From: a virus | Lineage: Duplodnaviria > Caudoviricetes | Length of the DNA stretch: 64,000 bases | Direction: 5' to 3' (one strand) | Virus record (IMG/VR): IMGVR_UViG_3300033463_000115 | Span: 91 to 64,090 of that record | Shown: piece after piece, positions 58,086-58,346 of the stretch | Layout: every line of letters begins with the position of its first letter | Numbering within the stretch: position 1 is the first letter of the stretch | Made by a program: the position numbers and the translations under genes | The notes under the pieces: model-generated | Databases searched by the model: none | Told to the model about the DNA's origin: nothing | Seen by the model: only the letters and a program-made list of their open reading frames with translations

Positions 58086-58288
58086 GAGAGTGATGACTTA
58101 TATATTTCTAAAAGGAAACTCATGAATATATAAGCTACAAATGGGATACTAGCCTCATCCTAAAGGATGAATAAGGGTAAGCGTCGAAAGACGAGGCAGG
58201 AGTAAGAGACCTGACAAAAAGGAATTATATTCCGGCTAACGATCAGCATGGTGAAAAACACAGTAATGTGCGGCAAGTGAACCAATCC
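58086..58288 (+). ncRNA. Candidate structured ncRNA-2 (about 203 nt)
   Basis: gagagtg pairs with cactctc at the ends; 10-bp cttatatatt/aatatataag stem; tcatcc-taaa-ggatga; cgtc-GAAA-gacg; T-rich tail. Confidence 0.7.
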
Positions 58289-58346
58289 ACCCACTCTCTT
58301 ATATTTTTTTCAATCTTATTCTATATTTTTAAAGGAGGACATTATT

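Follow-up and report, generated by a model that had tools for sequence, protein, structure and literature searches.

A Hypervariable RNA-Cassette Slot Upstream of the SSB Gene in a Cattle-Gut Phage and Its Relatives

Introduction

What kind of unit is a stretch of 213 nt that has its own promoter, pairs its first bases with its last, encodes no protein and stands directly ahead of an SSB gene? The question is raised by ncRNA-2 (58086-58298), which an earlier note on the same DNA had described as a structured non-coding RNA with a promoter at its head and paired ends, one of two tandem units built alike (the other being ncRNA-1); both parts of this description are supported by the analysis reported here. 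The DNA analysed, hereafter the window, is 64,000 nt long and covers almost completely its IMG/VR virus record, which has 64,090 bp and direct terminal repeats. Its source is a cattle-gut phage; bovine-gut metagenomes are the only sequencing runs that contain the whole window, no RNA run is listed among those containing it, and all of its long ORFs lie on the + strand.

The locus opens with a gene for a helicase-primase-polymerase fusion of 1,380 aa (53333-57475, phrog_4210), followed by a small ORF (57510-57839), the ncRNA-1 and ncRNA-2 cassettes and, on the + strand, a gene for a 163-aa protein of family PF24083 (58347-58838) with the SD aaggagg ahead of it (58332-58338, + strand). PHROGs labels the protein “single strand annealing protein”. 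Its predicted fold (pLDDT 84.7) matches the SSB of phage Enc34 and T7 gp2.5, that is, the OB-fold of Enc34 SSB, DUF2815 and T7 gp2.5 (Foldseek probability 1.0, TM ~0.52-0.56), and it is called SSB throughout.

Promoter Family and RNA Polymerase

The motif copy that had been noticed at 58061 is confirmed as one of 21 occurrences of YCGCA-N14-TATWRY in the window, all on the + strand, against 0.42 expected by chance. These sites, distributed from 2519 to 62706 and represented by the 25-bp form TCGCA-N14-TATAAT, often come right after a hairpin and a T-run, and the succession of hairpin, T-run and promoter forms a stereotyped gene junction in this genome. Their -35 position is not TTGACA-like. 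An RBS and an ORF follow within 0-60 nt at 19 of the 21 copies, and at several of them the RBS abuts the TATA-like box, which implies a transcription start at the box or immediately behind it. The exceptions are the copies at 57859 and 58061, each followed by 170-260 nt with neither RBS nor ORF. The second of these, a TCGCA-N14-TATAAC copy of the CATACGTTATAA subtype located by motif scan (58061-58085, + strand), heads the longest non-coding stretch found behind any of the 21 promoters, and no sigma-70-type site was called at its cassette. The promoters at 6489-6525 and 6937-6973 share the CACACGTTATAAT subtype as well as their first transcribed bases, and each heads a small ORF; within the window, the CAYACGTTATAA subtype occurs only in these two copies and in the two ncRNA cassettes.

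The phage encodes a YonO-like two-barrel RNA polymerase of 954 aa (8344-11208; phrog_4291, E 1e-296), and a domain search with valid controls found no sigma-70 region 2 domain among its proteins. A search for a T7-type polymerase (PF00940) also came back blank, yet the control genomes were blank too, which leaves this search uninformative. We infer that the promoter family is probably read by the phage's own YonO-like polymerase.

Anatomy and Predicted Fold of ncRNA-2

The first base after the box, G58086, is the inferred +1 and at the same time the first base of a clamp (P1), in which GAGAGUG (58086-58092, + strand) pairs with CACUCUC (58292-58298, + strand) with a probability of 0.99. The pairing had been proposed before with its 5′ arm at this place; the 3′ arm, formerly set at 58282-88, lies ten bases further on, which corrects the length of the RNA from about 203 nt to 213 nt. 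Within the clamp, the ensemble fold predicts a hairpin P2 (58097-58134, + strand) with a 16-nt loop and an A/U-rich stem of 11 bp (cttatatattt/gaatatataag, P 0.90), which upholds the stem reported earlier, and then a multi-branch core (58142-58284, + strand) closed by UGG/CCA, UACU/AGUG and GCC/GGC. Inside the core are hairpins whose loops read UAAA, GAAA and GUAA, and a single long, bulged arm built from the helices GGC/GCU, GGAGUA/UAUUCC, GA/UU and CCU/AGG, with helix probabilities of 0.88-0.99. The hairpins tcatcc/ggatga (P 0.98) and cgtc-GAAA-gacg (P 0.94) of the first description hold in the ensemble, and the long arm, together with the long-range closing helices, displaces its cagg/cctg and ggaat/attcc hairpins together with the gcct/aggc closure. 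Because ncRNA-2 is known from a single sequence, this fold is predicted without covariation support of its own.

After the 3′ arm comes the T-rich tail that had been reported, tt-a-t-a-T7 at 58299-58310; as RNA, the U-rich tail UUAUA-U7 (58299-58312, + strand, with T7 ending at 58310) is read as a terminator tract, and it opens a G-free, A/U-rich leader (58299-58331, + strand) that extends to the SD and is conserved in relatives. As a candidate terminator, the clamp offers a 7-bp stem with 4 G-C pairs and a duplex energy of -11.9 kcal/mol before UUAUA-U7. A simple terminator scan did not call it because the “loop” of 199 nt exceeds the limit and 5 nt separate the stem from T7. There is no promoter copy between the clamp and the SSB gene.

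Folding energy separates ncRNA-2 from shuffled sequence more clearly than from its own genome. Its MFE of -60 kcal/mol corresponds to z -4.59 against dinucleotide shuffles, with 0 of 200 folding as well, which is the outcome in favour of structure that the earlier note had asked about; the reverse strand reaches z -3.37. After correction for GC, ncRNA-2 falls only at the 8th percentile of the phage's own 213-nt windows (z -1.4), and being merely within the top 8% of genome windows makes energy alone weak evidence. The strongest GC-corrected predicted folding of the genome is found in two coding-region windows, 19281-19573 and 37761-37973, with residuals of -18 to -26 kcal/mol per 213 nt, far beyond ncRNA-2.

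With no + strand ORF preceded by an RBS, ncRNA-2 has no plausible coding capacity. Rfam 15 gave no match in the window at the gathering threshold, and at E<=10 the region 57700-58450 matched only over the upstream terminator hairpin; ARAGORN found 0 tRNA or tmRNA genes in the window. The longest complementary match to the rest of the phage, 12 nt, is at chance level for an antisense target. Three further candidates were rejected: a CsrA-type element, as GGA occurs 5 times against 4.1 expected; a MITE, as the inverted repeats are internal to the inserted unit, and promoter and U-run lie beyond their left and right arms, respectively; and a 6S-like rod, which is ruled out by the multi-branched fold and by the empty Rfam search. 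An identity of 14 nt to the terminator loop region at 47951-64, seen earlier, is real, although the stretch is near-palindromic and the match marginal (blastn-short E 0.04).

Two Cassettes with a Common Frame

The ncRNA-1 cassette (57859-58057, + strand) has the same build, with a promoter copy at 57859-57883, an RNA at 57884-58050 clamped by GAGAAGGAA/UUCCUUCUC, and T7. The earlier note had considered the two RNAs as possible divergent paralogues that share the pattern aggg..aag-hairpin-aggc. This pattern is unsupported: the longest word common to the two interiors is 8 nt (E 2.4), which is no significant similarity, and R1, a covariance model of the ncRNA-2 core, does not match ncRNA-1. Judged from their sequences, ncRNA-1 and ncRNA-2 have a common frame and are not paralogues.

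The suggestion that the two act as a pair finds no support in a near relative, X4, an 8.2-kb contig of a closely related phage from another study, in which ncRNA-1 occurs alone. X4 joins 58057 to 58320 through nine letters that match 58311-58319 and lacks a 253-bp unit consisting of the promoter, ncRNA-2 and the T-run. The direct repeat TTTTTTTCA stands at both borders of the ncRNA-2 cassette, with its left copy at 58051-58059 and its right copy at 58304-58312 (both on the + strand). X4 thus passes directly from ncRNA-1 to the leader of SSB, which identifies ncRNA-2 as an insertion/deletion cassette of 253 bp with TTTTTTTCA on either side. The small ORF 57510-57839 is also an indel, with its own promoter and terminator (window 57480-57858); it is missing from X4 and from L034, and other relatives have ORFs of 106-142 aa instead.

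The segment with ncRNA-1 and the end of its promoter (57870-58057) has 1 difference in 188 nt in X4 (99.5% identity), against 10% and 14% in the polymerase and SSB segments. Such identity between diverged flanks points to recent horizontal spread or to very strong constraint. Four runs from four studies contain ncRNA-1, and 58116-58317 is covered in none of them. Nearly unchanged copies of ncRNA-1 are present in runs of three studies other than that of X4.

A Slot 5′ of the SSB Gene in Related Phages

The two-RNA region gave no blastn match in a cultured-phage collection of 50,697 records, and closer relatives were collected by protein look-ups, in which the polymerase had ~5,800 relatives, and then from their contigs. 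At least 13 related phage lineages have the same frame directly 5′ of SSB, namely a promoter, a clamp at +1 and a U-run. The carriers are L023-26, with 77% identical SSB, L034/L065 (polymerase 87%), L035 (69%), L036/37 (66%), L039 (57%) and L042 (53%), and further L066-L069, L071-L073 and L075; in L070, an end-paired allele F occupies the same place without a canonical promoter copy. In 14 of 15 cassettes of relatives, the first base of the clamp is +1 or +2, and a run of at least 5 U follows its last base after 0-3 nt. The clamp sequences covary, as in GAGAGUG/CACUCUC, GAGAAGGAA/UUCCUUCUC, GGAGGA/UCCUCU, GAGAGG/CCUCUC and others. Behind the U-run come a G-free A/U leader, which hardly varies, and AAAGGAGG. 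This layout of a stem, a G-free A/U tract of ~30 nt and AAAGGAGG is kept in 14 of 15 relatives and persists where the stem is a plain promoterless hairpin (L040, the second hairpin of L036, and L042b).

A chance-complementary spacer without any functional RNA would be compatible with a folding energy unexceptional for the genome and with the lack of any homologue of ncRNA-2 in our searches. It would hardly give a perfect 7-nt complement running from exactly +1 to the U-run, in a geometry that recurs with covarying arms in 14 of 15 cassettes, and it leaves aside both the dedicated promoter copy and the exceptional non-coding length behind it; we consider such a spacer very improbable.

What lies inside the clamps differs entirely. 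The interiors measure 77-213 nt and have no significant similarity to each other, to ncRNA-1 or to ncRNA-2; the unrelated alleles A, B, C+A, D, E and F stand beside SSB genes that are 91-100% identical in nucleotides. Some slots hold tandem arrays, as in the window (ncRNA-1+ncRNA-2), L067 (C+A) and L042 (a+b). At the loci of 12 relatives, Rfam returned 0 matches at E<=0.1 and ARAGORN 0 tRNA or tmRNA genes, and in the DNA collected from the relatives no long non-coding unit was found behind any promoter away from the SSB slot. Conservation in relatives, which had been proposed as a check, thus extends to architecture and position, and not to the sequence of ncRNA-2. As related phages carry unrelated RNAs in the same frame, ncRNA-2 is one allele of a swappable RNA slot. 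This slot 5′ of SSB is a previously undescribed, hypervariable RNA-cassette locus, in which ncRNA-2 is an accessory allele.

Two side observations concern single loci. The first of the two tandem cassettes of L067 (L067:1159-1287) contains a canonical-looking tRNA T-arm, GGTGGTTCGAGTCCACC, within no full tRNA according to ARAGORN, which may be a tRNA-like decoy or a processing signal. In L042 (L042:187-446), two end-paired RNAs of 79 and 99 nt precede SSB, the second without its own promoter or U-run.

The position between the polymerase and SSB genes had earlier been taken as a hint at a replication or regulatory role. The tie to the 5′ side of SSB stands, and that to the polymerase does not: in L042 the SSB gene is upstream of the polymerase gene, and the cassettes still come ahead of SSB. 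L038 has no cassette and L040 only a plain hairpin, and among IMG/VR relatives with 38-50% polymerase or 40% SSB identity there is no gap or cassette between the two genes; with <=50% polymerase identity, the polymerase gene directly precedes SSB. These comparisons bear on a transcription-activated replication origin or primer RNA, for which the T7 primary origin and the R-loop origins of T4 are models of tandem promoters beside an AT-rich unwinding tract. The window does have two tandem promoters followed by a 48-bp tract of ~88% A+T, between replication genes. Yet L038 and all relatives with <=50% polymerase identity have neither promoter nor gap here, the interior is unconserved, and where the genes are ordered differently the slot has stayed with SSB, so an origin appears highly unlikely.

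Orphan Interior and Structural Selection

The interior of ncRNA-2 was sought widely. Over 320 kb of relatives, R1 recovered only ncRNA-2 itself. Pattern scans of IMG/VR with the full promoter subtype returned one unrelated mRNA promoter (L022), those with the promoter end plus GAGA 7 chance matches, those with the SSB leader pattern 12 unrelated phages, and those with the GUAA-hairpin motif 0 matches; the GAAA-junction motif gave chance matches in JGI metagenome and GTDB genome contigs, none of them scored by R1. By sequence, the interior of ncRNA-2 is thus an orphan in the IMG/VR, JGI metagenome and GTDB searches.

Alleles that recur allow a comparison which the orphan does not. Between the two copies of allele B (L066 and L075), all 6 substitutions within predicted stems retain pairing, and in two pairs both partners were replaced: an A-U pair of the clamp by G-C, and a G-C pair of an internal GAAA hairpin by C-G. 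Allele A has 5 substitutions, of which 0 break a pair. Substitutions in the recurring alleles are therefore shown to preserve the predicted base pairs, a pattern expected of interiors under structural selection, and the coding DNA next to these alleles has diverged far more than they have.

This result weighs on the possibility that the cassettes are selfish or neutral filler, in which the flanks would recombine like those of PeSL cassettes, the interior would hitch-hike, and the RNA would serve for no more than its promoter, its terminator and a stable 5′ end. Terminator-promoter junctions, the TTTTTTTCA-flanked indel and allele replacement all fit recombination at the flanks, which is how PeSL cassettes drive such shuffling in T4-type phages (PMC2839356), and the orphan status of ncRNA-2 agrees with a passive interior. 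Against it, substitutions in alleles A and B preserve structure, the recurring alleles surpass adjacent coding DNA in conservation, and 250 bp of useless DNA are rarely kept in phage genomes; we regard filler as improbable.

Leader in Cis or RNA in Trans

The reading that we prefer, with a probability of roughly one half, is that ncRNA-2 is a self-contained unit for a stable, end-clamped RNA with a leaky terminator. Transcription from the promoter at 58061-58085, probably by the YonO-like RNA polymerase, would start at G58086, and the transcript would fold into the hairpin and the multi-branch core. Pairing of its first seven bases with 58292-58298 ahead of the U-tract would then create an intrinsic-type terminator, and termination would free a discrete RNA of ~215-225 nt with both ends buried. 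The RNA, protected in this way against exonucleases from the 5′ as well as the 3′ side, would build up. Since no other promoter lies close to the SSB gene 48 nt downstream, termination has to be incomplete, and read-through would give an SSB mRNA that carries the RNA as a structured 5′ leader. Alleles would be exchanged through the conserved flanks, i.e., promoter, clamp, U-run and leader, and the selected part would be the folded interior with a putative action in trans. What that action might be is a guess: a protein-binding decoy, or a part in conflict between phages or between phage and host. In terms of known mobile units, ncRNA-2 is best read as a moron-like accessory transcription unit whose cargo is RNA rather than protein. 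A selected cargo is favoured by the complex, structurally conserved interiors, by the discrete alleles and by the tandem arrangement in which the upstream unit is insulated from SSB.

The leader produced by read-through could also be the whole story. A purely cis-acting SSB leader or operator, comparable to the T4 gene 32 operator, is the main alternative, though an unlikely one. In the operator form, excess SSB would spread cooperatively from the stable structure along the adjoining unstructured G-free A/U tract and so repress its own translation; in the other form of this alternative, the clamp and U-tract would merely attenuate transcription. Cassettes are found only directly 5′ of SSB in every lineage seen, including L042, there is no other promoter near the SSB gene, and because all cassettes share this one slot beside SSB, a role in cis fits as well as, or better than, a free RNA in trans. 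The stem, the G-free A/U tract and AAAGGAGG are retained in 14 of 15 relatives, even promoterless ones, and the predicted OB-fold of the SSB is that of the Enc34 and T7 gp2.5 SSBs. Moreover, when the 5′ clamp arm is removed in silico, the SD becomes less accessible in 7 of 9 constructs, and the pyrimidine-rich 3′ arm, once released by this removal, can pair with the SD. The difficulty lies with the interior, which a role in cis alone would leave free to vary. A boundary stem needs no multi-branch interior of 140 nt, yet selection acts on the structure of the interiors, as the compensatory change in a hairpin inside allele B shows, and diverged phages have them in near-identical form. In a tandem, the U-run of the upstream cassette and the promoter that follows insulate this cassette from SSB, L038 and more distant relatives do without any cassette, and discrete unrelated alleles stand beside identical SSB proteins.

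The stable-RNA reading may be extended, tentatively and at less than even odds, to an RNA counterpart of the hot spots for anti-defence and immunity genes. The slot would then hold many unrelated structured RNAs in a common frame, each under structural selection, swapped between co-infecting phages and acting in trans as strain-specific decoys, inhibitors or competition determinants, with ncRNA-2 as a rare allele. The targets would be host defences or rival phages.

Comparison with Known Systems

Small protein genes are the known cargo of phage morons and PeSL-type cassettes. ncRNA-2 resembles these units in being bounded by its own promoter (58061-85) and its own clamp and U-run (58292-58310), and in its presence/absence polymorphism between close relatives with TTTTTTTCA at both borders. 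In PeSL cassettes of T4-type phages, recombination at junctions of a terminator stem-loop and a promoter leads to insertions, deletions and replacements (PMC2839356). Unlike the sigma-70 early promoter of those cassettes, the promoter here is a 25-bp phage-specific motif with a predicted start immediately behind the TATA-like box; instead of an ORF with an RBS, the unit carries a folded non-coding RNA whose own two ends form the putative terminator stem, and the RNA cassettes are confined to one slot. Moron/PeSL logic is thus seen here to carry folded RNAs, with at least 12 unrelated alleles in one slot beside nearly identical SSB genes.

Discrete structured RNAs of ~120-220 nt with paired termini are made by other phages as well, namely phi29 pRNA and T4 rnaC and rnaD, which are conserved within their own phage groups. 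In contrast, the locus described here is hypervariable, has no Rfam match, Phage_pRNA included, and differs in genome type and location. Riboswitches and attenuators are similar in placing a structured leader that ends in a stem and U-tract upstream of a regulated gene; here, however, no aptamer is conserved across relatives, Rfam gives no match, no alternative antiterminator was identified, and the putative terminator stem of ncRNA-2 spans the whole RNA. Should the RNAs act in trans, the slot would represent a new source of RNAs by which phages regulate or counter defences, and at the same time a natural collection of compact RNA scaffolds protected from exonucleases.

The closest parallel on the side of transcription comes from SPbeta, where a YonO start site was mapped upstream of an unannotated ncRNA, although the YonO promoter sequence is undefined there and the RNA uncharacterised (PMC5467207). 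The present phage likewise encodes a YonO-like two-barrel RNA polymerase. The promoter rules of YonO-like polymerases are still undefined in the literature (PMC5467207), and a clamp that starts at +1 would provide indirect start-site evidence for the promoter of such a single-chain polymerase.

The T4 gene 32 operator combines a 5′ structure with an A+U-rich tract that overlaps the RBS (PMC3014915), and gene 32 operators diverge between T4 and RB69 (PMC535899). The clamp end at 58298 and the G-free A/U tract leading to the SD of the SSB gene (58332-38) show the same arrangement. The T4 element, on the other hand, is a small pseudoknot inside an mRNA, with neither its own promoter nor a U-run terminator, as opposed to structures of 77-213 nt in a promoter-to-terminator frame that are replaced wholesale between phages, and the SSB of this phage belongs by predicted fold to the Enc34/gp2.5 class and not to that of gp32. 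If the slot should work in cis, autogenous control as known from gene 32 would also apply to SSBs of the gp2.5/Enc34 class in Gram-positive-type gut phages.
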